39,825 nucleotides of DNA from sequence record MH031343; one strand, given 5' to 3'. Positions 20-38,470 of the stretch are shown one piece after another. Made by a program: the position numbers and the translations under genes. The stretch's first letter is position 1. Every line of letters starts with the position of its first letter. The stretch comes from Escherichia phage vB_EcoP_S523. The notes beneath the pieces were generated by a model. That model was given only the letters and a program-made list of their open reading frames with translations, was not told where the DNA came from and made no database searches.

Positions 20-42
20 TTTCGCAATAGTGAGTCGTATTA
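20..42 (-). promoter_or_regulatory. phage RNAP promoter (phi1.3-like), TAATACGACTCACTATTGCGAAA
   Basis: Promoter core downstream of gene 1.2, upstream (across the window wrap) of ligase gene 1.3. Confidence 0.7.
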
Positions 43-312
43 CTTCCAGTGCTTCAGGTCTGCGTGTACCTTGCGGAGCCACTCAGTCTGTGCATTGCAG
101 CGAACGTCTGCGTCGTCTTGTTCGAAACGCTCAGAGGTTAACACTACGCCATTCCGCAAGACCACTCGAAGAGTCTCACCGGATACCCAGCGCATCCTAG
201 CATAGTTATTATAGCGGAAAGTCTCAGTGACCACACGGACATCATGGTCTTCTTTGAGTCGTTCGATAGCGTCTTTGTATGCTATTAAGTTACCACTGTA
301 TAAGCGACCCAT
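40..312 (-). CDS. gene 1.2-like protein (T7 gp1.2 is a host dGTPase inhibitor), 90 aa
   Basis: ORF starts MGRLYSGNL and ends HWK, like recalled T7 gp1.2; sits between gene 1.1 and the promoter preceding ligase; ATG at 310-312 with GGAGG upstream. Confidence 0.6.
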   Translation of the reverse strand: MGRLYSGNLIAYKDAIERLKEDHDVRVVTETFRYNNYARMRWVSGETLRVVLRNGVVLTSERFEQDDADVRCNAQTEWLRKVHADLKHWK

Positions 313-461
313 TAGAGTGCCTCCTTCCAGTTGCGTTTCTCAGAGTTGCCACGCTGTGTCTTGTGGCGTTTCTTCATGCGGTCTTTACGTTCCTGCCATT
401 CAGTACCGTGTTCATTGATTACGTTGTTGCGCTTAGTGGTTGGTTCAAAGTTGGTACGCAT
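312..461 (-). CDS. gene 1.1-like small basic protein, 49 aa
   Basis: Hand-translated minus-strand ORF MRTNFEPTTKRNNVINEHGTEWQERKDRMKKRHKTQRGNSEKRNWKEAL; AAGGA RBS; stop overlaps gene 1.2 start as TAATG; position matches T7 gene 1.1. Confidence 0.45.
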   Translation of the reverse strand: MRTNFEPTTKRNNVINEHGTEWQERKDRMKKRHKTQRGNSEKRNWKEAL

Positions 462-543
462 AATGTTGTTTCCTTCTGTGTAGTTAATGACAGTTAATCA
501 TGAAGGCCACCAAATGTGATGACCTTGAGTTTAACTTTCAGTG

Positions 544-566
544 TTTCCCATTAGTGAGTCGTATTG
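544..566 (-). promoter_or_regulatory. phage RNAP promoter (phi1.1B-like), CAATACGACTCACTAATGGGAAA
   Basis: Promoter core overlapping the stop codon of the 185-aa ORF, upstream of gene 1.1. Confidence 0.75.
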
Positions 567-1108
567 TCTGCAACCTTACGTGCAATCTCAATGCGACCCG
601 CTACATCTTTCTTATAATAGGTGAACTCTTTGCGCTCACCGTCAGTGCACGTCTGTGTCAGCAGGTAGCGGTCGGCTTGTTCAACCCAATGTAGACATGT
701 GACTTGCTTACCACATGAGCCGAGACCCAGCTTGAACTCAGTGCGCTTCCATCCAGCATCCGGGATGTGAGCAGTAAACTTGATAGACGTGATGTCACTG
801 TGTGTATACTCACGGATAATCTTCTTGGCTTCTTTAAGTTCCTTGCGGTACTCCACTGCCTCAGCGCGTAGACGCTCAATGAGTTCTCGTTGGTTCGACA
901 TGTCATATTGTTGTTCGAACTCTAAGGTACGGATTCGACCAGCTAGTTCCTGCTTATCTCGCCATCCATCTTCAAGTCTCTCTTTGAGTGCATGAGAGTT
1001 CTTCTCTTCTTTGATTAGCTTAGTGAGAAATACCTTTGAACGATTATAGTATGTTGCTGCAAGAATGGTTGATACGAGAGCGCCTACTGAAGTGATTAAA
1101 GTAAACAT
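551..1108 (-). CDS. hypothetical membrane-anchored protein, 185 aa (N-terminal TM helix, charged coiled-coil, Cys-containing C-terminal domain)
   Basis: ORF with ATG at 1106-1108 preceded by AAGAGGAAA RBS; hydrophobic N-terminus MFTLITSVGALVSTILAATYY; flanked by two phage promoters; no counterpart on the canonical T7 map between genes 1 and 1.1. Confidence 0.6.
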   Translation of the reverse strand: MFTLITSVGALVSTILAATYYNRSKVFLTKLIKEEKNSHALKERLEDGWRDKQELAGRIRTLEFEQQYDMSNQRELIERLRAEAVEYRKELKEAKKIIREYTHSDITSIKFTAHIPDAGWKRTEFKLGLGSCGKQVTCLHWVEQADRYLLTQTCTDGERKEFTYYKKDVAGRIEIARKVADNTTH

Positions 1109-1168
1109 GATTGTGTTTCCTCTTAAAGTTAGAACTTAAAGTTATCTTAAAGTTTAGGAAGCCCGAAG

Positions 1169-1191
1169 GCTCCCAATAGTGAGTCGTATTA
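1169..1191 (-). promoter_or_regulatory. phage RNAP promoter (phi1.1A-like), TAATACGACTCACTATTGGGAGC
   Basis: Promoter core immediately after the RNAP gene stop; transcript would begin GGGAGCCUUCGGGCUUCC (UUCG tetraloop hairpin). Confidence 0.8.
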
Positions 1192-1198
1192 GATTCCG

Positions 1199-3850
1199 TT
1201 AGGCAAACGCAAAGTCTGACTTAAGGATTTCTTGCAGGTCCAGAGAGCCTTTAGCTGGCATCTCAGGCATCTTATCAAGCTGTGTCTCGTGCAACTGGTC
1301 AGCAAATTGCTCATAGAAGTCTGCAAGTACATCGTTCTCTTCGTAAGTGTTGACCATCGTTTCACGCACTGCTTTAAACAGGTTGCCAGCAGCAGCCGGG
1401 ATAGTGCCAAAGGAGTCATGAATCAGTGCGAAGGATTCCACACCGTAGACCTCATTGGAGCGCACTACAGTCATTCTCAGGTGGCTTCCATCCATTGAGT
1501 GGACAAAGTTAGGTGCGATGCCTGACTCCTGTTTACGAGCGTCAATCCCGCTATCTTTGTTGGTGTTCACGGTAGGCTGTAGACGAATCTGGCCTAAGAA
1601 CATCAGGTTCAAGCGGGTCTGTACTGGCTTCTTATATTCCTGCCAGACCGGGAAGCCATCAGGAGTAACCCAATGTACCGCACAGCGCTTACGGAGGACT
1701 TCTTTAGTCTTTTTGTCCTTGACTTCAGCAGCCAGAAGTTTAGCAGCAGACTTCAACCAGTTCATCGCTTCAACCGCTGCGACAACTGTGACCGTTACCG
1801 ATTCCCAAATCAGTTTAGCCATGTAGCCAGCCGCTTGGTTCGGTTGAGTGAACATCAAGCCCTTGCCATCGTCGATAGCTGGCTGAATGGTGTCCTCAAG
1901 AACTTGGTCACGGAATCCGTACTCTTTGGAACCATAAGCCAACGTCATGACCGAACGCTTAGTGACCTTGCGAGTCACACCATAGGCCAGCCACTGACCA
2001 GCTAACTCTTTCGTTCCCAGCTTGAGCTTCTCAGTGATTTCACCAGTGTCCTTGTTTGTCACGGTTTCCACTTCGTTATCAGTGCCGTTGACTACCGCTT
2101 CGCGGAGCATCTCGTTCACACGTTCCGCAACGATTCGGTAGATGTCCTGTACTTCCTTGCTCGGCAGCAGGTTAACCGCACGACCACCAACCTCATCACG
2201 GAGCATCGCGGAGAAGTGCTGAATACCGGAGCAGCTACCATCGAACGCCAGCGGAAGAGAGCAGTTGTAGTTCATCCCGTGGTGTTGCACACCTGCATAC
2301 TCAAAGCAGAATGCGAGGAAGCAGAACGGAGAGTCTTGCTCGGCCCACCAAGTGTTAGCAATCGGGTCAGCCGCAACGCTCATGATGTTCTCATGGTTGT
2401 CATCAATGAACTTGATGCGTTCTGCAAAGTCCACCTTGTCCACGCCAGCAGTGTTAGCACCGTGAATCTTCAGCCAGTAATACCCATCGACACCGATTGG
2501 TTTACCTTTAGCGAGCGTTAACAGACCCTTGGTCATGTCGTTGCCCTGCGGGTTGAACATCGGGACCGCGTACACACGACCGCGCCAGTCCATATTCATC
2601 GGGAACCAGATAGCTTTAAACTGTGCGAACTTATTGGCCTGACCTAACATGAACTCCATGCTCATGCGGCGTGACACTCGTGCCTTCTCTTTGCGGTAGA
2701 TTGCGGAGGCCGCTTTCTTCCATGCTTTGAGTGATGCCTCGTTGGTGTCGATGTCATCAGGTTTGACCGGGAGTTCTCCACGTTCCAGAGCGGGTACATC
2801 TTCAACCGGGCAATGCTTCCAGTTCACAATCTCGTTGACCACTGCCAGAACCTTCTTGTTAATCTTCCAAGGAGTATTCTGTGCGATGTTCACCGCCTTG
2901 TAGACTTCAGGCATATACACATCGTTGTAACGCTCAAGTCCCTTCTTGCTACCAGTGCGAACCAGAGAGAGAGGCTTGCGACCCGCAGCCCAATAGCCAC
3001 CACCGACCGGAGAAGTCCAAGGCTTCGGAGGGACCACGCAAGGCTGATACATCGGAGCGATTGCAGCCAGAGCGCCAGCACGTTTGGATAGCAGGTCTAC
3101 ATATTGTTCTGTTAACTGGATGTACTCGCCATCCTTCTCGATGTTCCCAGCGAACGGGCGGTGTAACTCAACGAGACCAGTAGACCCGATGAGCAGTTCC
3201 AACATGCGCACACCAACGTGAATTGATTCTTCAGGTGTCCATGTAGTCCACTTGGTTTGCAGTTGACCAGCATCAAGCATCTTGCCCTCTACGGCTTGCA
3301 TGAATGCTTTCTTGTAGACGATACCAACGCGCTTGTTCAGTGCCTCCTGTACGTGATTCTTAAAGTGCTTCGCTTCTTCGTCACGGATGCGACCAAAACG
3401 CAGTTCATCCTCAATACTGCGACCAATCTTAGTGGCGACCGATTGCAGGTTGGTGAACTCTTCTTTCGTCAAGCAAGCGAGTGTGACCTTAAGTGTGATG
3501 AATGCAGCAGCTTCAGGTGCAACCTTCTGTACCAGATTGTAGGCTACTGGACGCTTACCACGCTTCGCTTCCACTTCAGTGAACCAAGTGTTCCACGCCT
3601 CGATGAACTTTGGTGCGAGGGATGACAGGAGCGGTTTAGCTACTGCGTTATCACCGAACTCACCCGCTTTGATTTGACGTTCCATTGCCTTTAAGAAACG
3701 TTTCTCACCCTCGGTGTGCGCCTCGTGTTCCAACTCAAGCTGCGTAGCTGCAAGCTGTGCGCCGTAATGGTCAGCCAGAATGTTGTACGGCTGGATTGCA
3801 TTAGCGATGTCAGAGAAGTCATTCTTTGGTGCGTTGATTACGTTAGTCAT
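1199..3850 (-). CDS. single-subunit DNA-directed RNA polymerase (T7 gp1 family), 883 aa
   Basis: Same length as T7 RNAP; conserved motifs (DGSCSGIQHFSAMLRDEVGG, palm/fingers, C-terminal FAFA); position after kinase gene 0.7. Confidence 0.97.
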   Translation of the reverse strand: MTNVINAPKNDFSDIANAIQPYNILADHYGAQLAATQLELEHEAHTEGEKRFLKAMERQIKAGEFGDNAVAKPLLSSLAPKFIEAWNTWFTEVEAKRGKRPVAYNLVQKVAPEAAAFITLKVTLACLTKEEFTNLQSVATKIGRSIEDELRFGRIRDEEAKHFKNHVQEALNKRVGIVYKKAFMQAVEGKMLDAGQLQTKWTTWTPEESIHVGVRMLELLIGSTGLVELHRPFAGNIEKDGEYIQLTEQYVDLLSKRAGALAAIAPMYQPCVVPPKPWTSPVGGGYWAAGRKPLSLVRTGSKKGLERYNDVYMPEVYKAVNIAQNTPWKINKKVLAVVNEIVNWKHCPVEDVPALERGELPVKPDDIDTNEASLKAWKKAASAIYRKEKARVSRRMSMEFMLGQANKFAQFKAIWFPMNMDWRGRVYAVPMFNPQGNDMTKGLLTLAKGKPIGVDGYYWLKIHGANTAGVDKVDFAERIKFIDDNHENIMSVAADPIANTWWAEQDSPFCFLAFCFEYAGVQHHGMNYNCSLPLAFDGSCSGIQHFSAMLRDEVGGRAVNLLPSKEVQDIYRIVAERVNEMLREAVVNGTDNEVETVTNKDTGEITEKLKLGTKELAGQWLAYGVTRKVTKRSVMTLAYGSKEYGFRDQVLEDTIQPAIDDGKGLMFTQPNQAAGYMAKLIWESVTVTVVAAVEAMNWLKSAAKLLAAEVKDKKTKEVLRKRCAVHWVTPDGFPVWQEYKKPVQTRLNLMFLGQIRLQPTVNTNKDSGIDARKQESGIAPNFVHSMDGSHLRMTVVRSNEVYGVESFALIHDSFGTIPAAAGNLFKAVRETMVNTYEENDVLADFYEQFADQLHETQLDKMPEMPAKGSLDLQEILKSDFAFA

Positions 3851-6319: not shown

Positions 6320-6342
6320 ATTCTCAATAGTGAGTCGTATAA
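6320..6342 (-). promoter_or_regulatory. phage RNAP promoter (phiOL-like, left end), TTATACGACTCACTATTGAGAAT
   Basis: Match to T7 promoter core ACGACTCACTAT on minus strand, upstream of the host-type early promoters. Confidence 0.55.
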
Positions 6343-6479: not shown

Positions 6480-6930
6480 ACATAAGGCACCGACTGAAGG
6501 TTAACATAAGGATAGCCAGCCATAAGGATAGACATAAGGTGTTAACTCTAAGAGGTCATAAGGTGTTAACTCTAGGGTCACTTACAGATAGGGACACAGA
6601 GAGGTCCACATATAGTATCATTAAGTCACTCTAAGCCCTATATCTAGTGGTAACACCTAGAGTTAACCCAATGTCACACATAAGGATTGACATTAAGTAA
6701 ACCATAAGTTACCATAGGGGCGCTCTCTTTGAGTGGACTGAAGGAGGCCATAGGGGGGGAAACACTTTGTATGAACTATGAGATACCCTCTCAGATTTTT
6801 CTGTAGGATTCTTAAAGGGGGTACATCAAGTCTCATAAGGTTAACCACAGAGGCTCTATCATAAGGTGAGACTACGTGAGAGACCCTAAGAGACCCTGTA
6901 GACCATAGAGAGTGGTACATAAGGGGTTAC
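6480..6930. repeat. terminal-region short repeat array (about 12 copies of CATAAGG-like motif; minus-strand CCTTATG) spanning the inferred concatemer junction
   Basis: Recurrent cataagg / ccatagg / tcataaggtgttaactcta motifs between phiOL and gene 19.5; analogous to the CCTAAAG repeats of the T7 left end. Confidence 0.55.
6771..6783 (-). other. inferred mature genome left end (minus strand begins TCTCATAGTTCAT...); terminal repeat collapsed to one copy
   Basis: Reverse complement of 6771..6783 is TCTCATAGTTCAT, followed by CCCCCCC-TATGG; resembles the recalled T7/T3 genome start TCTCA(C/T)AG... and lies between the last late gene and phiOL. Confidence 0.4.
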
Positions 6931-7329: not shown

Positions 7330-7352
7330 CTTCCCAATAGTGAGTCGTATTA
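7330..7352 (-). promoter_or_regulatory. phage RNAP promoter (phiOR-like, right end), TAATACGACTCACTATTGGGAAG
   Basis: Strong promoter match located after terminase gene 19, directing transcription across the genome junction. Confidence 0.75.
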
Positions 7353-7439: not shown

Positions 7440-9197
7440 TTACCACTCAATGAAGCAGCTAGAGTCTCCATCGTCCTCGTAGTAGATGTCTACGCCACCA
7501 GCCTCGTAGCTATGGATAGCATCACCACCAATGGTCTGTTTCTCCATGTGGTGTTCAAGGAACTCAAGGGTCATAGCTTCCTCACCTACCTTAGAGTCCA
7601 CCTGCATCCCTTCACGAAGGAACTCGATACCCAATGCGATAGCATCAAGACGGTCATCGTGTGCCACAGCGCCCTTCTCACGAGTCATACGGGTCATCTG
7701 ATAGAACGCACTGTAGCGAACATCATGTTTCCCATCAAGGTCACGAGCGGTCTGGTAGTCCTCACGGATTACTTCGTCACGGATGATAAGGCGGTGTGCA
7801 CCCATCAACGGTTCGATAGTATCGCAGATACGCATCTCCTTCATGCCACGAGCGCGAATCTCTTCTAAGGCACACTTGTGGTGCTTCAGGAGAACCGGAG
7901 AGAATACCTTACCAAACATACCATCACCGAAGTTACTCTCGTGTACGACCGTCTGTACCTTCCACTGCTTGGCCTTCTTAGCGAGCTTCTCTAGGGTAGG
8001 GTCATCGTAGCCACCACGGAACCCACCGACTTCCATCAAGTAGATGTAGCCGTTCAGGGTGTAGAGGACCGCGTAACCCGTTTCATCCTTACCACGACCA
8101 GAGGGGTCAATGACGAGAATCTTTTGCTGGTACTCAGCGGTCTTAGAGGAACACACATGGAAGCTGTGAATGTCGTCACCCTTCAGACCCACGTTAGGAA
8201 GTTCCTCATTGCGGTTCTGACGGTTCGGCAACCACTGGTAGGACAATGGGGCACGTTCAGTGTCCACTGCGCACACGATAGCGTCACGGAGCCTCAGAGG
8301 GTACTTCTCGGCATCACTCAGGTTAGGGTTGAGCATGAACTGTAACGTGTAACCAGCTTTACCATATTCGAGTTCACGTTCACGGAGGTCATCCATATCG
8401 AATCGAACAGGGTCAGTAGGTTGTCCACGAAGTAACTCATAGCCATCATCATACTCGGCCTTAAGCATAGGAGCCAATCGGTCGCCATAGTAGAGAGCCT
8501 CAGCATCATTACGTGGATACTGTGCTGGCCAGATTACTGTGCTATACCCTTTGTTATCCTCAAGTTCCTTATAGAGAGTCATCTCGGTTTGAGGTGTCCC
8601 AAGGTAGATAACACGAGAGGTAGGCAACGGCTTAAGCAACGCAGCAAACTCAGTTACCAACGTCCAGAGCTTCTCACGGGCAGAACTCGTAGAACTGTTG
8701 CCGGGAACCTCAACGTCATCCGCAATGATAATATCAGCACGGCTACCAGTCAACTGACCAGTAATACCTACAGACTTCACAGAAGGTGAGTGGTCGGGTT
8801 TCGCCAAGCCTACGTCAAAGCTAATCACAGAGTCACGCTGTCCCGGTCGAGGTTTCAACTCAGCGAGGAATGGCAGCAGGTCAATGATGTTCTTAATGAA
8901 GATGGAGTTAGCATCCGCACGTTCCTTAGAGGCAGACACGATGAGCACCTTAAGTTGAGGGTCACGCCATAGCACCCACACAACGAACGCACAGGTGATA
9001 AAGGACTTGCCGATACCACGGAACGCCTGAAGGATAAACTTCTTGTGGTCGCCATTAGCGAGTGTACGTGCCATATCAATCTGACACTTGGTTGGTTTAG
9101 GTAAGTTCAGAGCCTTCCATAAGACGAACAGGAAGGCCACGAAGTCACCCTTAAGTTGCGCCACGATGAGCGCATTCTTGTTTGCTTGAGTAGACAT
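7440..9197 (-). CDS. terminase large subunit (gp19), 585 aa
   Basis: Near-colinear with T7 gp19 ([54 protein letters not shown]). Confidence 0.95.
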
Positions 9198-9212: not shown

Positions 9213-9770
9213 TTACTCGGCAGATTTCTCTAAGGCAGCAATGCGCTTCTCAAGAGCCTTGATAGTGTCGGTCTTAGACACAGCCCCGTCGATGTTACTA
9301 GGTTGGAACATAACGGAAGCGCTCTTCCCTTCGCTGTCCACGAACTGTGTACCAAATGCACTATCAGACGCAGAAAGCGTTGCATTGACTAATGAAGACA
9401 CACCACCTTCCGGTTCAGGGTCAGCACCAGTCCACTCTTTGTATACGTCGATTCGAACCATACCGAGCCGCTCAGTGCTTTGCTCATTCAGGAACACCGT
9501 CATGAACCCGCTACCCGGTTTAGACTCGACGGAGCCGCCCCAAGTGGACATAAGGGTCTCGAACGTAGCATGTTGCTCAGTGGTGCCATCACTCAGTTGG
9601 ATAACGTATTCAACCTTAGAGTAGCCATCAACCTTAACCATCTCCGAAGCTGGGATGTCGATACGCCCAACACGAATGCCAATATTGTTGCGGTCATACA
9701 CATCACGACTGTCTGGTGAGCGACCATTGATGGTCCAGAGTGTGCGGGTTCTTGAGTTTGTAGTAGCCAT
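9213..9770 (-). CDS. hypothetical protein, 185 aa, between the spanin genes and the terminase large subunit gene
   Basis: ORF with ATG at 9768-9770 and AAGGAG RBS, packed tightly between gene 18.5 and gene 19; no TM segment; C-terminal heptad-like KALEKRIAALEK; no T7 counterpart at this position. Confidence 0.6.
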   Translation of the reverse strand: MATTNSRTRTLWTINGRSPDSRDVYDRNNIGIRVGRIDIPASEMVKVDGYSKVEYVIQLSDGTTEQHATFETLMSTWGGSVESKPGSGFMTVFLNEQSTERLGMVRIDVYKEWTGADPEPEGGVSSLVNATLSASDSAFGTQFVDSEGKSASVMFQPSNIDGAVSKTDTIKALEKRIAALEKSAE

Positions 9771-10782: not shown

Positions 10783-10829
10783 TGTGTCCTCCTTATTGTT
10801 GAGACCATCCGTGGTCTATATGTTGTCCG

Positions 10830-12854
10830 TTATTGGGTTTGAACTAAGATTCTCGTAGGTACAGAACTACGGTCAGCATCATTACGGAAAGTTCTCCCGT
10901 TGTTGGAGATTGTGAACTGTAACCACCCGCCCATAGAAGAGATGTAGTATGCACCGTTATCACCAATCTGAACAGGGTTCCAGCGTCCTCGAGTTTGAAT
11001 CCAGATGGTTCTCCATCGGACATCCTGTGAGAGACCTACGGATACCCCACCACCAGCGGAACCTTTCCACACCTCAGCCCAGCCAGCATTCTTACGAATG
11101 TATCGACCGTCAGCGGCACCTTGGGTTAAACGACCATTAACTAGGTTGTTCACCTCTCTTTTGTTATAGGCATGTTCACCAAGGCGTTTGTTGACCCAAC
11201 CGTCGATGTAAGAATCATACTTCTTGATGTATAAGTTACCATCTGCCGCAATCTGCCACCCCTTACTACTTGCCAATGCGCCTTGAATAGTCATTGTAAG
11301 GGCATGTTCATTACCGCCATCCCCCTTGAGTTGGATGATACCATCGTGGAAGTTGTTGCTACCCTTGGATACCATACCGATGGAGAATGCCGCCGGATAA
11401 CCATTAGAGCGTCTACCATATTGTTTAATCATAGGGTAATACACGTTGCCATCCTGATTTCCGGGGAGGCTTTGCGAGTAGGGGGCATTGTTATTCAACT
11501 GGTTTGCGAACCCTCCTGACCCAAAAGTTGACTCAGTGTAGAATCGCTCATCAGCCCTGATATACTTAGATACTCGAAGATAACCATCCATAGATACGTT
11601 CTGGTAGAACCGTGAATCATGGTGAGAGTGGAATCCACCGTAGAAATCGTGGCGTCCGTTCCCATTGGAGCGACCATCAGGCCACTTAGATGGGTCCGTG
11701 TTTGTAAACACATAGTAGTCCATGCGTTTTGGTCCGGCCTGAATCCACTGTTCCCAAACAGTCTCCTTACTGCCCTCCCCACGCCATTGGGTCCACACCA
11801 AGTCAACTGGCTGTGTACCAGCACCTTTTGCATCATTTCGCAACGTAAAGTCCTTACCAGATACTTTGCGCTTGAAGTAAACATCAGGAGCCTCAACCCT
11901 GTCGATAGCCTCAGCTAGTGAGTTCATATTACCCAACTTGTCAGCCTCAGCCTTAGCACGGTCAGCCTCACCTTTGGAGCGGTTTGCCTCAGTGTTGGCT
12001 CGGTCAGCATGTCCCTTAGCGGTCTCAACATGTGCAGCAGCTTTGGCAACCTCAGCAGCAGCTTTAGTCACTTCTCCGGCAGCACGATTGGCCTCATCAC
12101 GGGCACGATTGGCCTCAGAGTTGGAACGGTCAGCTTGCTTCTTGGCCTCAGCGACACTTGCGGTCATACTATCAGCATAACCTTTAGCTCGGTTAGCCTC
12201 AGAGTTGGAACGGTCAGCTTGCTTCTTGGACTCAACTGCTTGTTGCGTAGAGACACCTGCCTGTTGCGTTGAGCGGTCAGCTTCACGTTGAGCACGGTTG
12301 GCCTCATCACGAGAACGGTTTGCTTCCTTATTGGCCCTGTCAGCGTGTTCGTTAGCTTTTGTTACGGCATTCCATGCAGAGGATTCACGCTCTTTAACCT
12401 GCTTTAAAGGAACGGCATCATAGTCACTTGTGGCATACGCCAAGTTAACAATCTTACGACCACGAGCATCTAAGTGACCGTCATTGTTGACACCAATGGT
12501 ATCCGCAGTGAGGTCTCGTGCTTCTTCAGCAACATGCAGTGTTTGAATCTGCGAGATGTTCAGGTCATATGCACGGAGGATTGAGCCATCAGCAAGGTCA
12601 ACCAGACGATCAGTAGCCGAAGTGAATCGACGAATCTCAATCATCTGGTAGCCATCAGCGGCAGTCCACGCACGGGTAGTAGTAATTTGAGTCTTACTGG
12701 TAAAACGATAGTCCTGATTGAGAACCAGTTCTTTACGGTCTTTACCAATAAGTGTCACTTGGATGAACTTACGTGCCAGATAATCAAAGGTAATCGTGAA
12801 ATTCACGGCACCATTCAGCGGGTAAGTCATCACAGTACGAATCTTGTTAGCCAT
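10830..12854 (-). CDS. tail fiber protein (gp17), 674 aa, with extended shaft and distal domain
   Basis: N-terminal about 150 aa and C-terminal about 90 aa match T7 gp17 (FEYLARKF..VTLIG, GSAGGGVSV..SQD); central ADRxNxEANR repeats; about 120 aa longer than T7 gp17 (553 aa). Confidence 0.9.
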   Translation of the reverse strand: MANKIRTVMTYPLNGAVNFTITFDYLARKFIQVTLIGKDRKELVLNQDYRFTSKTQITTTRAWTAADGYQMIEIRRFTSATDRLVDLADGSILRAYDLNISQIQTLHVAEEARDLTADTIGVNNDGHLDARGRKIVNLAYATSDYDAVPLKQVKERESSAWNAVTKANEHADRANKEANRSRDEANRAQREADRSTQQAGVSTQQAVESKKQADRSNSEANRAKGYADSMTASVAEAKKQADRSNSEANRARDEANRAAGEVTKAAAEVAKAAAHVETAKGHADRANTEANRSKGEADRAKAEADKLGNMNSLAEAIDRVEAPDVYFKRKVSGKDFTLRNDAKGAGTQPVDLVWTQWRGEGSKETVWEQWIQAGPKRMDYYVFTNTDPSKWPDGRSNGNGRHDFYGGFHSHHDSRFYQNVSMDGYLRVSKYIRADERFYTESTFGSGGFANQLNNNAPYSQSLPGNQDGNVYYPMIKQYGRRSNGYPAAFSIGMVSKGSNNFHDGIIQLKGDGGNEHALTMTIQGALASSKGWQIAADGNLYIKKYDSYIDGWVNKRLGEHAYNKREVNNLVNGRLTQGAADGRYIRKNAGWAEVWKGSAGGGVSVGLSQDVRWRTIWIQTRGRWNPVQIGDNGAYYISSMGGWLQFTISNNGRTFRNDADRSSVPTRILVQTQ
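12112..12229 (-). repeat. in-frame direct repeat inside tail fiber shaft region (34-nt identical copies at 12112..12145 and 12196..12229, 84 nt apart)
   Basis: gcctcagagttggaacggtcagcttgcttcttgg occurs twice; encodes repeated KKQADRSNSEANRA. Confidence 0.7.
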
Positions 12855-12901: not shown

Positions 12902-12924
12902 CTTCCCATTAGTGAGTCGTATTG
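12902..12924 (-). promoter_or_regulatory. phage RNAP promoter upstream of tail fiber gene (phi17-like), CAATACGACTCACTAATGGGAAG
   Basis: Promoter core match about 50 nt upstream of gene 17 ATG. Confidence 0.75.
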
Positions 12925-12925: not shown

Positions 12926-15900
12926 TTACTTCTTGTCAGCCTTAAGGTGAACACCATTAGCCTCATAGAACTTAATGAGCATCTGTTGAGTGATAGGGTC
13001 ATTAGGAACCATCTCACGATGAGCGTTCATCAAGCCAGTCATCATCTCACGCTCGGTCACTTTGTTAGGAGCCGTTAGGACACCATAAGCATTTCGACCA
13101 GCAGCAAGGGTTGCCCCAGCGAAACCAAGAGCGGGAATCTGTTCACCAATAGCGCCCATGATGGATTCTCCCATATCACGAGAGGTCACTGCTTTATTCC
13201 GGTCACGCTTGTCTTCTCCTTTCGGTAGAATCGTAGAGCGCACCATGAGACCTTGGTCGTAACCAGCAGCACCCATAGCGAAGTTGGCGATACTCAACGG
13301 GGAACCTAAGTGTGAACTACGGGAGGCCGCAGCGTAGGCAATCATCTTCGGGTCGAGGGCTTTCTTCAAGTAATCCTTCTGTTGCTCTTTAGGAAGACCA
13401 GCAGCTTTCAAGTGAGCCTGTGCCACATAGTAGGAGCCAGCAATGCCACCAGAGATAGCATAGGTCAGCGCCATGTCCATAGCACGGTGGTTCTTAAAGG
13501 CTTCGTTGCCAGAGCGGATAAACTTAGAGTTCATCGACTTGATGACAAACGACTTAAACTGAAGGACTAACTTAGGGATAGCACCATACGCATGGGAATC
13601 CTGTAGGGAAACCTTATGAGGTCGGAGCATCGTTTCATCAGCAACCTTATCAGCTAAACGCCATAAGTCCATAGCACGAGGGTCATTCGCCAGCTTGCGC
13701 TTATCCTTGAAGGTGAACTTACCGTCTTCACCACGAGTCACGTTCTCACGAATGAGGTTCTGAATGCCTTCCCACTGTTCCTTAGAGATACTCGCAGACT
13801 TCAGCATGTCACCTTTAATCCACTTGTTGGCACCTTTGCCAGTGATAGCATGAGTGACCACATCTCCCATCACACCCTGTCGAGCCATATCGAGAATGTA
13901 GTTTGACGTACCATTCAGGAACTTGGTGAGCGGGGAGCGAGCAGCTAACTCTTGAGTCGTGTGCTTGATAGTCCCTACAGCCTTAGCAGCCATATCTGGA
14001 GTATCGGTTGACTCGCGTAGTCGCTGAACGATGTCTTGACGAGTCGGACGAATCAGGTCGTCGAACTCTTTACCAAACACCATTGAGTGGAGTTCCTTGA
14101 GTTCCTTACCAGAGACTGGCTTGTTGCGGAACGCTAAGTCACGCAGAGCAGGAATACCATGCAGCATCGCACGAGTGTTACCCTTTGCTAAGAGACCAGA
14201 GATTTCAGTTAGGTTCTGCAAGCCCATGTATGCGTTCTTCGTAAAGAATGACATATCGGACAGAGCGCGAACCATAGTGTCACCTACGGTATCCTGATTG
14301 CGACGAGCGCGACCAGTGAGAATCTTAACGGTATCTTTCAGTGCCTCTACTTCACCTTTCATCGTACCCTTCCCTTCTGACTTCTTATCGAGAGCCATAA
14401 TGGAATCTTTCAGTTCAGCAGTTGTCTTCCCTGTTCCACCCATGATTGCAATGTCACCATCAACACGTCGGTCATAGGCTGGCATCACACGCTTCATATC
14501 GAAGTCACGGAGGTCATTCACAGAGAACGGCTGTCCATTCGGTAAGGTAACTGGCATGTCAGAGTCGAATAGGTTACGGGCTTCAAGGAACGAGTTGTTC
14601 TCAATCCCCACGAGACCCTCAATGTTATCGTCGATGACACTTGAAGAGTTGAACTCATCAGTCTTCGCAATACCATAAGCCTTATCGCTGGCATGTTTCA
14701 TCACCATCTCTTCGGTAACAGCCTTTGGGTCGATACCCAAGGTCTCCGCTAAGTGCTCATCCACACGAGCCTTAACTTCAGGACGTGAACGGTAAGAGGT
14801 CATCCAGCTTGCAGCGATAGCTTCCTGTAAACCGTCAGTACCGCCAAGAGCCTGTGAGTACAACTGCTTGGCTTCCCGCGAGTACACATGAGGAACGTAA
14901 GTCCCTTTGTGACGACTATTGGGGAAGATAGAAGTTGCCTTGTTACCAAACATAGACGGGTTCTCCATCATCTCACGCTTGAGGTCGAAATGTTCCTTCA
15001 TGATGTCCATTACCTTACGCTCAGCCTTCGTTAAGTTGGCCTGAAGTTCTGGACGCTCAATAGCGATTGCAGCACGACGATAGATTTCCTGACGAGCACC
15101 TTGAGCACCCTGCTTGAACATACCCACAGACCACTCAGGGTCAGCCATAGCTTCCTTCATTGCACTATAGAGGTCGTTGTAGGTTCGTTGGTTCGTACTG
15201 TGCAGACGCTCTTTAATGTCAGAGGCAGTAGCACCGAACTTACCGTGAGTACCTGACTCCATACCTGTAGGTGAGCGCACTAAGTCCTTAGCGAGACCAC
15301 GGATTTCAGCGTGTTCAGAACGTAAAGTCCTCAAGCCGATTTCACTCAGTCCACGCATAGGCAAGCCCCACGCAGCACGTTCAGGGTCTACTTCTGCGAA
15401 CTCTTTGGCTGTCATTGGGTTAGCCAAGTTTGTATCACTGATAATGGAACCATCACGCAACACTACGGCACCCGGTTCAGTTTCAAGAGGTGAATACTCA
15501 ACGCCATTGTGATTCGAGAACACTCGGTCTTCACTAGGAGGCATACGGCTTGCGTCGTGCCCACCTGTGTTACGTGCAGTCTCACGAGCCTCAAAGCGCA
15601 TCTGTGCAGCAGCGAATGGGTTCTCAATCTGTTCAGCACCGGACTTACGGAGACCAGCAGCCACACCATCAGCGATAGCAGTAAGGCCACCAGCGAACAG
15701 CATACCAGCAAGGGCAGCTTCAGCATAGTGAGCATCACCGCCAGCAACCGATGTGCGGAGTCCTTCAGAGGCCACGTTGAGAGCGCCAGCTTGAGCACCT
15801 ACAATCAACGCCTTGTTAACCAGCTTGAACCCTTTAGCCGCAGTCCCAGCGATAGGAACGTAGGTCAACGGGTCAACACCAGCACCAATAAGGCCAGCAG

Positions 15901-16896: not shown

Positions 16897-19176
16897 TTAG
16901 TCTTTACCAGTCAGCGTGTCCAGAATACCTTTACCACTTACCGAATCGTACATGCTACCAGAGCGCTTAGGCTTCTTAGCTTCACGTTCACGCTTGCGGT
17001 TCATAGCTCGTGTATGCAGGGTTCGCTTATTGGCATCTTTGAGTGCCTTGTTACGGGCTTCCTCATCCAGCTTCGCTTGGTTCTCTTGATACATCTTAGA
17101 GAGCAACTGCTTGTCATACCGAATGTTAACCTGTCCGGTTGTATCCATCAGGTAGATAGAGTCACCACGCTCGAACACAGTGAGTTGCTTGTTAGTCACC
17201 CAAGGGTTCGTCTCAGCGAGTTTCTTAGCGGCTGTGTCGATGATGTCCTTACCCTGTTTCCAAGAGTCCGGGTCATCGGTCACACGTAGAGAGTTTCTCG
17301 TTAAGACACCAATGGTATCACCATCAACATCATCACCAGTGAGAGTCGTTGTGTTCTCTTTGAGGTACTTATCGACCTGTTGCATCGCCATATCAGCATT
17401 GCCAGTACGGTACTTCACAGAGTCATAAATCTTACGAGCACCAGCGTCCAAGGTGGCTGGCATACGGGATAATTCAGGAGACTGTGAGTTGTTCTTAAGA
17501 GCAGCCCATGCCTTGTCATCCTCATACTGCATATCCTTGGTCAGAGATTGTCGAGCCTTGTCTGCATCTAAGAGAATCTGCGGGTCAATCCCTTGGTTGT
17601 CCATCATGTCCATCGTGAGGAACATCTCGGCTTTATCAGGATAGAGTGCAGCGAATAACTCAGGGTCAGCATTACGAACACGACGAAGAGCATTAAGTGC
17701 CACTCCACCATCTTCGGGCATCTTCCCGTTAATCACAGCGGACGTCCACTCCTTCTCAGCGTCCCCAATAAGTTCACCAACCGCAGTACGGAAAGCACCC
17801 TTCTCAGAGTCAGCCTTGAGGTAGTCCAGCTTCATTCGGTCCTTCTGTTCAGCAGGGATGTCCATAGCGTCAATGTCGGCTAACTTCTTGTTCGCATAGT
17901 TAACCATGTCACTATGGGTGAACTCGCCAGTGTTCTCGTTGGTAGGCATATCGCCATACGCAGTAGACACATACTGACCATTCAGTCTCTTCTGGAACTG
18001 TGCGTCAATGACGTTCATTTTGTTCATCGACTTCTGTTGCTTGTCCATCTGCTTGGCTAACTCAGCGGTCTCCCGCTTCATCCTGTCCTGCATCTGCGTC
18101 TGTGCATTGATTAACGCCTGACGTTCAGGTGTCATCTCTTCGCCCGGTTGCAGTGTGTCCAGTTCAGCCTTGATGGATTGCAACTGTTCCCAGCCAGTGT
18201 TCACATTCTCTTGGTTCAACGCAGAGTTCACATTAAGTTGGAACGCCTCGGTCTTCTTAGCATTCAACTGGAACTCATTATGTTGAGCCTTAACCATCAG
18301 ATTGTTCCACTGTTCGGCACCCATCAGTTCCTTGAAGGTTGTCTCTTTTCCGTGGAGTTTCACCTTACGGTTCTCAATCTGTTGCAGGAACTGACCGCCA
18401 CCTTCACGGTTAACCACGTCAGACAGACCTTGGCTAATCATTGTGAACGCTTGGTCATCACTAGGAATACTACCAGTCGTCAATCCAGCACTGAAGTAGT
18501 TCTCAAAGAACTCACCAGCATGTGGAGAACGTAGGGTTTCCGGGTCGTTCAACACAGAGTTCAACTCTACGCGACTGTTGATGACAGCACCCTTCTTAGC
18601 TTGGTCACTCAGGAAGTTATCGTGAGCACCATAGAGGGCGATGTTACGTTCAGTGATGTCGGAGTTGAAACCTTTCTGATAGTGCTCATCAGTCTCGTCG
18701 ATACCGAACTGTTCCGCATAGTTCTTAGCGGCTTCTTGCAGTCGGCTATGACGGAACTCTTCCAACTCTTGACGAGTACGGAACTCACCGTTCTTCACCT
18801 TCTGTGCCACTTCATCATCTACGAGATACGCAGCGTTACGACCAGTCTTAATCTTAAGTGCTTCCATCGCATATGGGTCATCCTGATATAACAGTGTCCC
18901 ATTCTTAATGGCCTCTCGACGTTGCTCAGGAGTCAGCTTACGAATAATCTCGTTAGAGCGTTCGTCTGCTTTGTCCTTCTGGTGCTGGTCATACTGCATG
19001 TAAGCATCCGCGCCCATCTCAGCAAGTTTACCTACAGTGCCAATCAGAGCGGACTTCTTGGCATACTTAGGGTCTTCATAGACTGTTGCGGCCTTAACTT
19101 CCATACGACCAGTGCCGCGCAGACGACTAGCAGCCGGAGCGTTCATGCTACCCAATGCTTGCGCTAACTTACTCAT
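16897..19176 (-). CDS. internal virion protein C (gp15), 759 aa
   Basis: Size and position between gp14 and gp16 as in T7 (747 aa). Confidence 0.88.
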   Translation of the reverse strand: MSKLAQALGSMNAPAASRLRGTGRMEVKAATVYEDPKYAKKSALIGTVGKLAEMGADAYMQYDQHQKDKADERSNEIIRKLTPEQRREAIKNGTLLYQDDPYAMEALKIKTGRNAAYLVDDEVAQKVKNGEFRTRQELEEFRHSRLQEAAKNYAEQFGIDETDEHYQKGFNSDITERNIALYGAHDNFLSDQAKKGAVINSRVELNSVLNDPETLRSPHAGEFFENYFSAGLTTGSIPSDDQAFTMISQGLSDVVNREGGGQFLQQIENRKVKLHGKETTFKELMGAEQWNNLMVKAQHNEFQLNAKKTEAFQLNVNSALNQENVNTGWEQLQSIKAELDTLQPGEEMTPERQALINAQTQMQDRMKRETAELAKQMDKQQKSMNKMNVIDAQFQKRLNGQYVSTAYGDMPTNENTGEFTHSDMVNYANKKLADIDAMDIPAEQKDRMKLDYLKADSEKGAFRTAVGELIGDAEKEWTSAVINGKMPEDGGVALNALRRVRNADPELFAALYPDKAEMFLTMDMMDNQGIDPQILLDADKARQSLTKDMQYEDDKAWAALKNNSQSPELSRMPATLDAGARKIYDSVKYRTGNADMAMQQVDKYLKENTTTLTGDDVDGDTIGVLTRNSLRVTDDPDSWKQGKDIIDTAAKKLAETNPWVTNKQLTVFERGDSIYLMDTTGQVNIRYDKQLLSKMYQENQAKLDEEARNKALKDANKRTLHTRAMNRKREREAKKPKRSGSMYDSVSGKGILDTLTGKD

Positions 19177-20238: not shown

Positions 20239-20261
20239 CTTCCCAATAGTGAGTCGTATTG
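20239..20261 (-). promoter_or_regulatory. phage RNAP promoter (phi13-like), CAATACGACTCACTATTGGGAAG
   Basis: Promoter core match between gene 12 stop and gene 13 start. Confidence 0.75.
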
Positions 20262-24715: not shown

Positions 24716-24738
24716 TCTCCCAATAGTGAGTCGTATTA
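24716..24738 (-). promoter_or_regulatory. phage RNAP promoter upstream of capsid gene (phi10-like), TAATACGACTCACTATTGGGAGA
   Basis: Best promoter match in the window; about 165-nt leader ending AAGGAGATTCAACATG. Confidence 0.85.
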
Positions 24739-25740: not shown

Positions 25741-25763
25741 GTTCCCATTAGTGAGTCGTATTA
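25741..25763 (-). promoter_or_regulatory. phage RNAP promoter (phi9-like), TAATACGACTCACTAATGGGAAC
   Basis: Promoter core overlapping the gene 8 stop codon, upstream of gene 9. Confidence 0.8.
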
Positions 25764-28335: not shown

Positions 28336-28358
28336 CCTCTCAATAGTGAGTCGTATTG
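28336..28358 (-). promoter_or_regulatory. phage RNAP promoter (phi6.5-like), CAATACGACTCACTATTGAGAGG
   Basis: Promoter core between gene 6.3-like ORF and gene 6.5. Confidence 0.75.
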
Positions 28359-32735: not shown

Positions 32736-32758
32736 TCTCCCATTAGTGAGTTGAATAG
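32736..32758 (-). promoter_or_regulatory. variant phage RNAP promoter, CTATTCAACTCACTAATGGGAGA
   Basis: Conserved -11 to +6 (ACTCACTAATGGGAGA) but divergent -17 to -12; directly upstream of the gene 4.7-like ATG. Confidence 0.5.
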
Positions 32759-33603: not shown

Positions 33604-33626
33604 TGTCCCATTAGTGAGTTGTATTG
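33604..33626 (-). promoter_or_regulatory. variant phage RNAP promoter (phi4.3-like), CAATACAACTCACTAATGGGACA
   Basis: Promoter core inside the 3' end of gene 4, upstream of the gene 4.3-like ORF. Confidence 0.55.
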
Positions 33627-33691: not shown

Positions 33692-35467
<1,776 letters not shown>

Positions 35468-35550
35468 TCACCGGAAGTGCTTCACCAAATAGCTTACGCA
35501 TAGTGGTTACTCCTTATACAATTTTAGCGAACAAAGGGAGAAACCTTTCG

Positions 35551-35573
35551 GCTCTCCCATAGTGAGTTCTATT
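35551..35573 (-). promoter_or_regulatory. irregular phage RNAP promoter-like site (phi4c position), TAATAGAACTCACTAT-GGGAGAG
   Basis: Promoter core one nucleotide short between CACTAT and GGG; followed by a GGGAGA...UCUCCC leader hairpin. Confidence 0.4.
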
Positions 35574-35665
35574 ACTTACGAGTTAAGATATAGGTCAATG
35601 CCAGAACGAATACACAGCGGTAAATCATATCGTACATGCCCATCTCATGAATAATCATCATAATC

Positions 35666-36121
35666 TTATCCCCAATCACTTGTTACTAATTCACCAGTCT
35701 TCAGCCAGCGACTCAAGTTAAAACTTGGACACGCTTTAGGAGCCACATCGTGGTGTGCTTTGATTTCTGCATCCGGGTACAGGTCTTTCAGGTCTGCCAG
35801 TTTCTCTTTAAGAGAGTGCATCTGTGCTGGCGTAAAGTTAGCTTCGTGTCTGCCCTTATCGTCGATACCACCAACGAGGCACACACCAACTGACTTACTG
35901 TTCCAGTCTTTCACATGAGACCCAACGACACCGACCGGACGGCCTTCTTCGATTGTACCATCACGGCGAATAATGAAGTGGTAGCCTACATCAAGCCAGC
36001 CCTGTTCTTTATGCCACTGACGGATTTCACGCAGACCGACATTCATGGTCGCCTTAGTTGCGCTACAATGGACAAAGATTGCTTCTGTCACAGCGCGTGG
36101 TTTGAATTGTACCTTACTCAT
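35666..36121 (-). CDS. lysozyme / N-acetylmuramoyl-L-alanine amidase (gp3.5), 151 aa
   Basis: Same length as T7 gp3.5; conserved AIFVHCSATK, REIRQWHKEQGWLDVGYHFII, HHDVAPKACPSF. Confidence 0.92.
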   Translation of the reverse strand: MSKVQFKPRAVTEAIFVHCSATKATMNVGLREIRQWHKEQGWLDVGYHFIIRRDGTIEEGRPVGVVGSHVKDWNSKSVGVCLVGGIDDKGRHEANFTPAQMHSLKEKLADLKDLYPDAEIKAHHDVAPKACPSFNLSRWLKTGELVTSDWG

Positions 36122-36564
36122 TTCTTCTTCACCTCTTTAAATTTATCGAATGGAACATCCTTAGAAGGCTCTTTAAGCCAATCAACTGGAATTAATTTGT
36201 CAGCAAACAGAATGCCATGCTTCTCACACCACTCGCCATAACTGGTCGGAGACCCTTTGTACAGCTTGGAGCGACTAGAAGAGAACACGATGCGCACATC
36301 AAGTTCAGGATACTGTTCACGGATAAGTAAGTGCTTCTTACGGTCGTCACTGTCCCACAGACCTTTGGTTTCCACAAAGATGCCATTAGGTAACAGGAAG
36401 TCCGGGCAATAGGTATGGTTGCTTGCAGGAACAACATATGGTACACGCCAACGCTCGTAGTCGAACTTAATGTTCTTCCCTTCGAGTTGTTTGCTTACCT
36501 TATCCTCCAAGCCAGAGCGAAAGGCACCCACACGAGTGCCTCGACCTGCATAGCCCTTAGCCAT
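36118..36564 (-). CDS. endonuclease I, Holliday-junction resolvase (gp3), 148 aa
   Basis: Colinear with T7 gp3 (VGAFRSGLEDKVSKQLE, PDFLLPNGIFVETKGLW). Confidence 0.9.
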   Translation of the reverse strand: MAKGYAGRGTRVGAFRSGLEDKVSKQLEGKNIKFDYERWRVPYVVPASNHTYCPDFLLPNGIFVETKGLWDSDDRKKHLLIREQYPELDVRIVFSSSRSKLYKGSPTSYGEWCEKHGILFADKLIPVDWLKEPSKDVPFDKFKEVKKK

Positions 36565-37262
36565 TAGAAATCACCGTCTTCGTCTTCATCGTCCTCTTCT
36601 GGTTCTTCATTCCAGCCAGAGTCGTTTTGAGGCTTGCGGGTCTGTGCTTCATCAGCTTCGTAGCCGTCTTCTTCGATTTCATCACCCCAATCGTCATCAC
36701 CACCACCGAACTCGACCAGCTTAATCAGCATCACGGAATCCAGTTGCAGCTTAACGGAAGCACCTGCCACAGCAGACCAACCGTAAGGGAACAGAGTGTA
36801 TTTAATCTTCAGTTCAGAGCCACCAGAGATAGCTGGACGCTCACCACGGATGCGCTTACCTTTGGAGTCCACGATAGCCAAGTCGATTGGTTTGTTCTCA
36901 CCAGTCTTCTTGTCAGTGAACGAGCCGTAGCACTTGAAGTTGAACGTAGTGGTTCCATCTTCGTTATCCATGAAAGGCATGTCGCCAACATATGGCTTCA
37001 GCGGTTTCTTACCCTTGACAACTTTCGGCGGGTTCGCTTCGTACTCTTCGAGTCGAGCAGCGTAGTCCGTCTCATGGGCTTCGACAATCTCGTCAATCAT
37101 CTTCTGACAGCGAGGGTCGTCGTTGGATACAGTCAGTGATACTTTGTAGACACCACGTTCGTTCTTGAAGTCACCGCTACCGAAGTCCGGCTTTGCCAGA
37201 TAGCAGTAAGGTTCAGCAATACCACGAGCGGAAGTGAATACTTTACGTTTTGCGAATGCCAT
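36564..37262 (-). CDS. single-stranded DNA-binding protein (gp2.5), 232 aa
   Basis: Same length as T7 gp2.5; conserved N-terminus and acidic C-terminal tail ending DGDF. Confidence 0.92.
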   Translation of the reverse strand: MAFAKRKVFTSARGIAEPYCYLAKPDFGSGDFKNERGVYKVSLTVSNDDPRCQKMIDEIVEAHETDYAARLEEYEANPPKVVKGKKPLKPYVGDMPFMDNEDGTTTFNFKCYGSFTDKKTGENKPIDLAIVDSKGKRIRGERPAISGGSELKIKYTLFPYGWSAVAGASVKLQLDSVMLIKLVEFGGGDDDWGDEIEEDGYEADEAQTRKPQNDSGWNEEPEEDDEDEDGDF

Positions 37263-37310
37263 AATGATTCTCCTTTAGTTTCTGAAAGTTAAAAGTGGGA
37301 AACGTTAGTG

Positions 37311-37333
37311 TCTCCCATTAGTGAGTCCTATTA
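37311..37333 (-). promoter_or_regulatory. phage RNAP promoter (phi2.5-like), TAATAGGACTCACTAATGGGAGA
   Basis: Promoter core overlapping the gene 2 stop, upstream of gene 2.5. Confidence 0.7.
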
Positions 37334-37522
37334 AACCTTACGGTCTGGACGGATGCGTGTTACAGCGAAGCCAGCAGGGACGTATTGCCACTCAGCTAAC
37401 TCATTGGCCTCTTCAAGAGACGTAGCGAACACGGGTACTTCGAACGATTGGCCTTGGCCTTCTACCGTAGCGAAGAACTTCTTGTCACCGTTTACCAGTG
37501 ACCCTTTATTCAGAGTGCTCAT
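37331..37522 (-). CDS. gp2-like inhibitor of host RNA polymerase, 63 aa
   Basis: Size (T7 gp2 64 aa) and conserved [20 protein letters not shown] motif. Confidence 0.8.
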
Positions 37523-37617
37523 TGTCCTCTCTCCTTCCAGTGATTATATAATTCAAGGTAGTCGGTGTTGCCTGTCTTTTCAAACATACGCTCACACCAT
37601 TCACTAGGCTTTTCCAT
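37519..37617 (-). CDS. gene 1.8-like small protein, 32 aa
   Basis: Hand-translated [32 protein letters not shown]; GAGGTGG RBS; stop overlaps gene 2 ATG (ATGA). Confidence 0.3.
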
Positions 37618-37697
37618 ATTCCACCTCTATAGCCCAAAACATGAGGAACAGGCAAGCACCCATTCCAACACAAATTAGCAGGAAATATAAGATGTCA

Positions 37698-38069
37698 TTA
37701 AGCATAGCACTTACCTTTGTGTTTCTCGTACAGTTCACCATAGAACCCAGCTTTCGCCATGTCCTTCTCTAAGAATGCTAGTTCAGATTTCTTACCAGCA
37801 CGTAGGCGATACTTAAGGATGTTCCCTAAGCAGTACCCTTTGAACTGTTCACGGGTCATCGACCGGGCAATCACTTCGATAGCCTCAATGTCGTCAAACA
37901 ACATATAGTGGCTCGGAGTACGAACATCATCTATATCTTGTGGTTTGTCTGACTTAGTGCAACTACATACACCAGCGCCATTCCAGATTGTACACTCACT
38001 GGTGTGCTTTGTTTTGCAGGTATGCGGGTAGCGGTCATCTTTCTCTAAACATGCTATGCAACCAGACAT
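37698..38069 (-). CDS. gp1.7-like protein (T7 gp1.7 is a nucleotide kinase), short form, 123 aa
   Basis: Conserved CIACLEKDDRYPHTC and PSHYMLFDDIEAIEVIARSMT..FKGYC.GNILKYRLRAGKK relative to recalled T7 gp1.7, but lacking about 70 central residues. Confidence 0.75.
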   Translation of the reverse strand: MSGCIACLEKDDRYPHTCKTKHTSECTIWNGAGVCSCTKSDKPQDIDDVRTPSHYMLFDDIEAIEVIARSMTREQFKGYCLGNILKYRLRAGKKSELAFLEKDMAKAGFYGELYEKHKGKCYA

Positions 38070-38332
38070 TAGAACACCTCCTTGATACGAGCAATGACCA
38101 GACGGACTTTAGGGAAACGGGTGACAAGAACCGGAATGAAAGGCCGGGAGCCAGTGGTCGCTTCTTTATATAAGCCAGTGGTGATTACAGCGTGAACACG
38201 AGGTGCTAACTCAATGGTCGAGCCAAGCACTTTAGGAATGACAGCATGTTTCTCGGAGGCAAGAACCGTCGAGCGGTCGGAACCACGAGCAGAAAAGATA
38301 CCGTTTGATTTGTTGAAGTGTAGTCGTAACAT
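38069..38332 (-). CDS. gene 1.6-like protein, 87 aa
   Basis: ATG at 38330-38332 lies 8 nt downstream of GGAGG in the promoter-initiated leader; the track ORF start at 38347 lies upstream of the predicted transcription start. Confidence 0.55.
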   Translation of the reverse strand: MLRLHFNKSNGIFSARGSDRSTVLASEKHAVIPKVLGSTIELAPRVHAVITTGLYKEATTGSRPFIPVLVTRFPKVRLVIARIKEVF

Positions 38333-38339
38333 AAGTGTT

Positions 38340-38362
38340 TCCTCCATAGGTGAGTCGTATTA
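38340..38362 (-). promoter_or_regulatory. variant phage RNAP promoter (phi1.6-like), TAATACGACTCACCTATGGAGGA
   Basis: Perfect -17 to -5 match, divergent -4 to +4; initiating region doubles as the RBS for gene 1.6. Confidence 0.55.
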
Positions 38363-38440
38363 GCAATCAGGCCAGCAGTTGTCGTCAATGATAACGAAGG
38401 CAAACGTGGCAAAGATAGCAGCAGCAATTAGAAATAGCAT
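38360..38440 (-). CDS. small hydrophobic peptide (gene 1.5 position), 26 aa
   Basis: Hand-translated MLFLIAAAIFATFAFVIIDDNCWPDC; its TAA stop is the first bases of the phi1.6 promoter. Confidence 0.3.
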   Translation of the reverse strand: MLFLIAAAIFATFAFVIIDDNCWPDC

Positions 38441-38447
38441 GAGGTTG

Positions 38448-38470
38448 TTCCTCCATAGTGAGTCTAATAG
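38448..38470 (-). promoter_or_regulatory. variant phage RNAP promoter (phi1.5-like), CTATTAGACTCACTATGGAGGAA
   Basis: Partial promoter core with the same TATGGAGGA initiating region as the phi1.6 site. Confidence 0.4.

Follow-up and report, generated by a model that had tools for sequence, protein, structure and literature searches.

Sixteen promoters of the known Berlinvirus type, most with T at position -1, in the T7-like genome of Escherichia phage vB_EcoP_S523

The promoters read by the single-subunit RNA polymerases of T7-like phages of the genus Berlinvirus, a genus named in the taxonomy lines of the BA14, Kvp1 and PP74 records, have been described both by annotation and in vitro. The BA14 record (EU734171) carries 16 annotated phage promoters, namely OL, 1.05, 1.1, 1.3, 1.5, 1.6, 2.5, 4.3, 4.7, 6.5, 9, 10, 13, 17 and OR, together with an unnamed 'phi' at the 3.8 position, and 14 promoters of the same type are annotated in the Kvp1 record (FJ194439). 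A logo of the Kvp1 promoters was published in 2008 and was closest to that of phage Berlin (Lingohr et al. 2008, PMC2579914). The polymerase of PP74 has since been purified and was active in vitro on TAATACGACTCACTATTGGGAA and the best of 26 enzymes (PMC11475235). Here, we analyzed the repeated promoter-like elements of Escherichia phage vB_EcoP_S523 (record MH031343), whose whole sequence of 39,825 nt is hereafter called the window. We conclude, with a probability of about 0.93, that sixteen sites in the window serve a T7-like Berlinvirus as its class II and class III promoters and are read by its own gene 1 polymerase, and that T at -1 is a genus-wide state.

Sixteen promoter sites had been proposed for this DNA in an earlier note made from the letters alone, and all of them are present where it placed them, its coordinates being the low (+6) ends of sites that lie on one strand (minus). 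A search with the pattern TAATACGACTCACTAWTGGGA, allowing up to 3 mismatches, returned 12 matches in the window, all on the minus strand, and 0 in 100 shuffles, the remaining sites being recovered with a shorter core. A matrix of 23 columns (-17 to +6) was then made from all 16 sites and used to scan both strands; it returned exactly these 16, with scores from 23.5 to 38 bits and nothing else above 8 bits on either strand, although such a scan is partly circular in that the sites are scored against their own matrix. This check, which the note had put forward, hence yields a clean set of 16 sites, in which only -1 differs categorically from T7, and the matrix revealed no further promoter site on either strand of the window. 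A near-match at 9053-9063 (ACTCGCTAATG), which scores below 8 bits, was set aside as a chance match. The sites form an element of about 23 bp that is repeated and always points in the direction of transcription (16/16 minus), with G at +1 in every copy. Their order and spacing on the reverse strand reproduce the promoter maps of T7 and BA14 (OL, 1.1-1.6, 2.5, 3.8, 4.x, 6.5, 9, 10, 13, 17, OR).

Column counts over the 16 sites give a consensus identical to that of T7 from -17 to -3, as previously claimed. The departure from T7 had been placed at both -2 and -1, and it is retained for -1 only: this position is occupied by T in 14 sites and by G in 2 (A in 0/16), compared with 16 A and 1 T in T7 (n=17), while A or T is found at -2 in both phages (A in 7 and T in 9 sites of the window; A in 5 and T in 12 of T7). 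Since the orthologous copies of phi1.3 and phi17 in the window and BA14 have A at -2 in one phage and T in the other, this position behaves as a neutral A/T position. None of the 16 sites conforms to the strict Teseptimavirus consensus TAATACGACTCACTATAGGGAGA, with A at -1, and the T7 consensus itself, with up to 3 mismatches allowed, recovered just 5 sites in the window, so that the sites are not T7-type at -1. The statement that TTG or ATG precedes GGGA in every copy was too sweeping, as only 10/16 read (A/T)TGGGA; the others are TTGAGA at 28358 and 6342, TTGCGA at 42, and three further forms, TATGGGAGA, TATGGAGGA and CCTATGGAGGA, among the sites 35574, 38470 and 38362. The segment from -4 to -1 is entirely A/T in 13/16 sites.

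Promoter positions along the genome correspond to those of the T7 class II and class III promoters, and transcripts would start with G residues in both phages. T7 phi2.5 (TAATACGACTCACTATT AGGGAA) has TT at -2/-1 and is identical from -17 to -1 to the TT-type sites of the window, but it has A at +1. Another difference is that the late promoters of T7 are identical 23-mers, whereas those of the window are not all identical. The T3 promoter is AATTAACCCTCACTAAAGGGAGA and the K11 promoter AATTAGGGCACACTATAGGGAGA; promoters of these types, including those of the IMG/VR loci L031 (T3-like) and L030 (K11-like), share the 23-bp architecture, CACTA at -7 to -3 and the GGGAGA start with the sites studied here. 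They depart from T7 at -12 to -8, the target of the specificity loop, and keep A at -1, whereas the window departs from T7 at -1 only.

The earlier note implied that this consensus was new and named an identical consensus in closely related described phages as the finding that would overturn the idea; such phages exist. The consensus TAATACGACTCACTA(A/T)TGGGAGA, where TAATACGACTCACTA spans -17 to -3, is common to the window, BA14 and Kvp1, and PP74 carries it as well, in the promoter tested in vitro. It is therefore already known, having been annotated and published since 2008 (BA14, Kvp1) and used in vitro in 2024 (PP74). The 16 sites of the window correspond one-to-one to the 16 promoters of BA14 by flanking sequence and lie in the same gene contexts; the 23-mers are identical in 10/16 cases and differ by single bases at phi1.05, 1.3, 4.3, 6.5, 9 and 17. 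The same unusual sites are found in BA14, with phi1.5 reading CTATTAGACTCACTATGGAGGAA, phi1.6 TAATACGACTCACCTATGGAGGA and phi3.8 TAATAGAACTCACTATGGGAGAG. Kvp1 differs in having an additional phi11 and in the absence of several other window promoters from its annotation. The sites have the features of the Berlinvirus promoter class (TAATACGACTCACTA at -17 to -3, A/T at -2, T at -1 and G at +1), and the phage itself groups with this genus: the nearest records are BSP161, BA14, 285P, PhiV-1, Kvp1, PP74, WW1 and P151, with 88-94% nucleotide identity over most of the genome. BSP161 and 285P are Berlinvirus members as well, according to the literature. The coordinates of the sites and of two further features are collected in Table 1. 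The phi3.8 form CACTATGGGAGAG, which is kept in three phages (window 35552-35574; BA14 10827-10849; Kvp1 10845-10867 and 17773-17795), lacks one base ahead of GGGAGA, which can equally be written as a G at -1.

Table 1. Promoter sites and other features of the window. Sequences are given from -17 to -1, then +1 to +6; scores are from the 23-column matrix; an equals sign marks a 23-mer identical to the named promoter.
Feature	Position	Strand	Sequence	Score (bits)	Remarks
phi1.3	20..42	-	TAATACGACTCACTATT GCGAAA	35.2	flanks match BA14 phi1.3; target is the ligase gene, on the other side of the permuted window junction
phi1.1	544..566	-	CAATACGACTCACTAAT GGGAAA	37.9	= BA14 phi1.1
phi1.05	1169..1191	-	TAATACGACTCACTATT GGGAGC	36.2	directly after the polymerase gene; BA14 phi1.05 counterpart
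gene 1, single-subunit RNA polymerase, 883 aa	1199..3850	-			Pfam RNA_pol (PF00940) and RPOL_N (PF14700); best solved structures T7 RNA polymerase 1cez, 1qln
phiOL	6320..6342	-	TTATACGACTCACTATT GAGAAT	31.8	= BA14 phiOL
terminal repeat, one collapsed copy	6590..6783	-			84% identity by blastn to the BA14 terminal repeat (positions 1-194); between phiOR and phiOL
phiOR	7330..7352	-	TAATACGACTCACTATT GGGAAG	37.9	= BA14 phiOR
phi17	12902..12924	-	CAATACGACTCACTAAT GGGAAG	37.3	precedes the tail fibre gene; BA14 phi17 has T at -2, otherwise identical
phi13	20239..20261	-	CAATACGACTCACTATT GGGAAG	37.7	= BA14 phi13
phi10	24716..24738	-	TAATACGACTCACTATT GGGAGA	38.0	full consensus, top score; upstream of the major capsid gene; = BA14 phi10 and Kvp1 phi10A
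phi9	25741..25763	-	TAATACGACTCACTAAT GGGAAC	36.4	BA14 phi9 counterpart
phi6.5	28336..28358	-	CAATACGACTCACTATT GAGAGG	35.2	BA14 phi6.5 counterpart
phi4.7	32736..32758	-	CTATTCAACTCACTAAT GGGAGA	30.6	class II, deviant upstream part; = BA14 phi4.7
phi4.3	33604..33626	-	CAATACAACTCACTAAT GGGACA	33.0	class II; BA14 phi4.3 counterpart
phi3.8 (phi4A in Kvp1)	35552..35574	-	TAATAGAACTCACTATG GGAGAG	26.0	class II; annotated alike in BA14 and Kvp1
phi2.5	37311..37333	-	TAATAGGACTCACTAAT GGGAGA	35.1	class II; = BA14 and Kvp1 phi2.5
phi1.6	38340..38362	-	TAATACGACTCACCTAT GGAGGA	25.8	= BA14 phi1.6; +1 to +6 also ribosome-binding site of gene 1.6
phi1.5	38448..38470	-	CTATTAGACTCACTATG GAGGAA	23.5	= BA14 phi1.5; +1 to +6 also ribosome-binding site of gene 1.5

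The same genome encodes a cognate single-subunit polymerase with both a specificity loop and an AT-rich recognition loop, the gene 1 product, which shares 76% identity with T7 RNA polymerase and 94% with the PP74 enzyme. Alignment with T7 shows that residues R746, N748, R756, Q758 and W422 and the AT-rich loop KRGKRP are conserved. R746 is among the T7 residues that contact -11 to -7 of the promoter. A T7 promoter-library study counts N748, R756 and Q758 among these residues (PMC5937735). The conserved contact residues and AT-rich loop fit the identical -17 to -5 element, and they support the proposal that the polymerase reads a T7-type upstream element next to an altered start-adjacent region. 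The peptide quoted for that proposal as the recognition loop, PTVNTNKDSGIDARKQESGIAPNFVHSMDG, is present at residues 759-788, but it covers just the specificity loop's C-terminal flank, with the base contacts lying immediately upstream. The -1 template base may stack on W422, an idea from the structures of Cheetham & Steitz to which we gave no weight here; our literature search for contacts of W422 with this base returned nothing usable. The most divergent promoter-proximal element, far more so than the specificity loop or the AT-rich loop, is the intercalating hairpin (residues 232-241, window 3127-3156), which reads PFAGNIEKDG compared with QNAGVVGQDS in T7, V237 being replaced by I.

Our reading of the system builds on the sites, their single orientation, their synteny with the promoters of relatives, the conserved contacts and the A/T composition around the start, the roles of the loops being carried over from T7. 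By analogy with that enzyme, the AT-rich recognition loop KRGKRP would bind -17 to -13 and the specificity loop (R746, N748, R756, Q758) would read -11 to -7, with -17 to -5 presumably bound as duplex; the intercalating hairpin, with I237 where T7 has V237, would open the AT-rich segment from -4 to -1, and RNA synthesis would begin at the first G, with GTP, its distance to the binding element being fixed. Initiation at +1 of these sites has indirect support from the in vitro activity of the PP74 polymerase on the shared consensus. Replacing TATA by TATT or TAAT keeps -4 to -1 all A/T, so that the mechanism would be unchanged. Throughout the genus, T would then be the state at -1 of the melting and initiation segment, with -2 a neutral A/T position, and the polymerase would be expected to work on TAATACGACTCACTATTGGGAGA. 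Three points weigh against this reading: the hairpin differs substantially from that of T7, so that the details of melting could differ; the start sites in this phage are placed by inference, above all those of phi3.8, phi1.5 and phi1.6 with their different spacing or -1 base; and the relative strengths of the promoters are likewise only suggested, by analogy with T7.

To see how far the -1T state extends, we surveyed 46 loci from IMG/VR that encode related polymerases, taking in at most 10 kb of flanking sequence on each side. The exact motif AATACGACTCACTAWTGGGA is repeated in contigs whose polymerase is 94-99% identical to that of the window; it is also present in a relative at greater distance (86%), and two T7-like contigs have a single copy each. 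Positions -2/-1 are TT, AT or TG in the loci with a 94-99% identical polymerase, and TA or AA in T7-like loci, plus a single TT at phi2.5. T at -1 is also combined with other upstream elements, namely TAATAGAACTCACTATTGGGAGA in L013, a sequence ending in CTCACTAATGGGAGA in L050, AATTACAACTCACTAATGGGAAC in L028, CCATGCGACTCACTATTGAGAGA in both L022 and L023, and one beginning with TTAACTATCACTATTGG in L029. Since it occurs in several lineages of Studiervirinae, T at -1 is a recurrent state in the subfamily and not peculiar to this phage.

T at -1 might instead be a true specificity determinant: Berlinvirus polymerases would need T and reject T7-type promoters with A at -1, the base being sensed in the melting and initiation segment via the N-terminal domain or the hairpin. 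The occupancy of this position, with T in 14/16 sites and never A, speaks for such a requirement, and yet two to three of the promoters of the phage itself have G there. With the PP74 enzyme, promoters other than its own are reported to have yielded no output, 'even a single nucleotide change' (PMC11475235), but the single-nucleotide variant is not named in the text consulted and the supplement does not list the promoters of Figure 4A. A 2026 paper (PMC13600099) cites cross-transcription work by Mertens & Hausmann (1982) as showing that the BA14 system is functionally unlike those of T7 and T3, a result that therefore reaches us second-hand. Discrimination in the opposite direction is weak: in the library of Komura et al. 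(PMC5937735 and its S2 File), T7 polymerase scored 73.3 on the -1T promoter TAATACGACTCACTATTGG, about 43% of the wild-type mean (169), as read from one barcode, and T7 phi2.5 has a natural TT. The AT double variant TAATACGACTCACTAATGG is not among the entries listed from the same S2 File. On the side of the enzyme, 27 alignment columns separate -1T from -1A polymerases, among them a hairpin-base change, Q232 to P/L. A neighbor-joining tree of the polymerases places one -1T lineage (L028) apart from the Berlinvirus clade; however, the two groups largely follow phylogeny, so that the columns are confounded by shared ancestry, and the internal branches of the tree are short. We did not accept them as evidence of contact and retain them as a lead only. 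Taken together, we consider a specificity role for -1T possible but rather improbable. Its more detailed version, in which -1T is an orthogonality determinant sensed by the N-terminal domain or hairpin (for instance through Q232P and the divergent residues 232-241) and not by the specificity loop, and arose more than once in Studiervirinae, seems doubtful to us.

Returning to the class II and class III promoters of our preferred reading, we considered whether they are graded in strength. T7 class II promoters are weaker than its class III promoters. Four sites had been singled out as varying at -12 to -10; these do deviate, but a fifth, phi1.5 (38470, CTATTAGACTCAC), does so too, and the deviations span -16 to -11. 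As in T7, all five (phi1.5, 2.5, 3.8, 4.3 and 4.7) map to the class II (DNA metabolism) region, while the six late sites from phi6.5 to phiOR keep the exact core AATACGACTCACTA. By analogy with T7, the former would be of the weaker class II type and the latter of the strong late type. Because the upstream-deviant sites all fall in the class II region, as in T7, graded strength, which the earlier note had proposed, is a reasonable analogy, although not a new one. The CTATTC deviation of phi4.7 is common to the window, BA14 and T7 (T7 CTATTCGACTCAC..., 13898-13920, and window CTATTCAACTCAC..., 32736-32758), and the deviation of T7 phi3.8 (TAATTGAAC...) likewise matches the orthologous site of the window. 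Such site-specific deviations, kept across genera, suggest that a given strength has been selected for at each site.

Alternatively, the differences among the 16 sites could be drift with no regulatory meaning, in which case strength would not be graded. When promoters of the window are set against their BA14 orthologues, positions -17, -2 and +4 to +6 do vary with no visible pattern, but the upstream deviations are confined to the early and middle gene region and are kept site by site in BA14 and Kvp1, and even in T7 at phi4.7; together with the established weakness of T7 class II promoters, this makes drift quite unlikely. The last possibility, that the repeats are elements of another kind such as packaging or recombination sites, can be dismissed, as all 16 are co-oriented with the genes and lie directly upstream of genes or at gene ends, at T7 promoter positions, with sequences that match experimentally validated promoters of T7 and PP74, so that synteny and the PP74 in vitro data effectively refute it.

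Two of the low-scoring sites, phi1.5 and phi1.6, had been included in the argument for graded strength on account of their 'TATGGAGGA' form. The best account of their GGAGGA is that the promoter start also acts as the Shine-Dalgarno sequence for genes 1.5 and 1.6, the ATG of each gene lying at +14. The same double-duty arrangement is found at phi1.5 and phi1.6 of T7, where gene 1.5 starts 13 nt after +1.

With this work, a further Berlinvirus genome is shown to carry the promoters that its genus would lead one to expect, which is useful for annotation only. More generally, polymerase/promoter pairs that are one base away from T7, outside the target of the specificity loop, could be used for orthogonal expression and would help to test how the polymerase senses the initiation segment, an approach opened experimentally with the PP74 enzyme (PMC11475235).

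As regards the genome as a whole, sequence comparison indicates that the window is a complete T7-like Berlinvirus genome, reverse-complemented and circularly permuted. It is a circularized assembly, cut within the leader between phi1.3 and ligase, with a short overlap at the cut. Bases 1-19 are the same as bases 39807-39825 (ATGACCTTTAGTTTAACTC), i.e. an assembly overlap. As there is a single terminal repeat of about 194 bp (Table 1), the physical ends of the genome lie there, the second copy having been collapsed by the assembly. The best whole-genome matches (WW1, P151, BSP161, 285P and BA14) show 90-94% identity across 85-97% of the sequence. Under the 95% species criterion, the phage is probably a new Berlinvirus species. 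Between the equivalents of genes 18.5 and 19, the window contains an open reading frame (9213-9770, minus strand, 185 aa), and BA14 has one of equal length (558 bp, 36655-37212, 'unknown product') at the same position.

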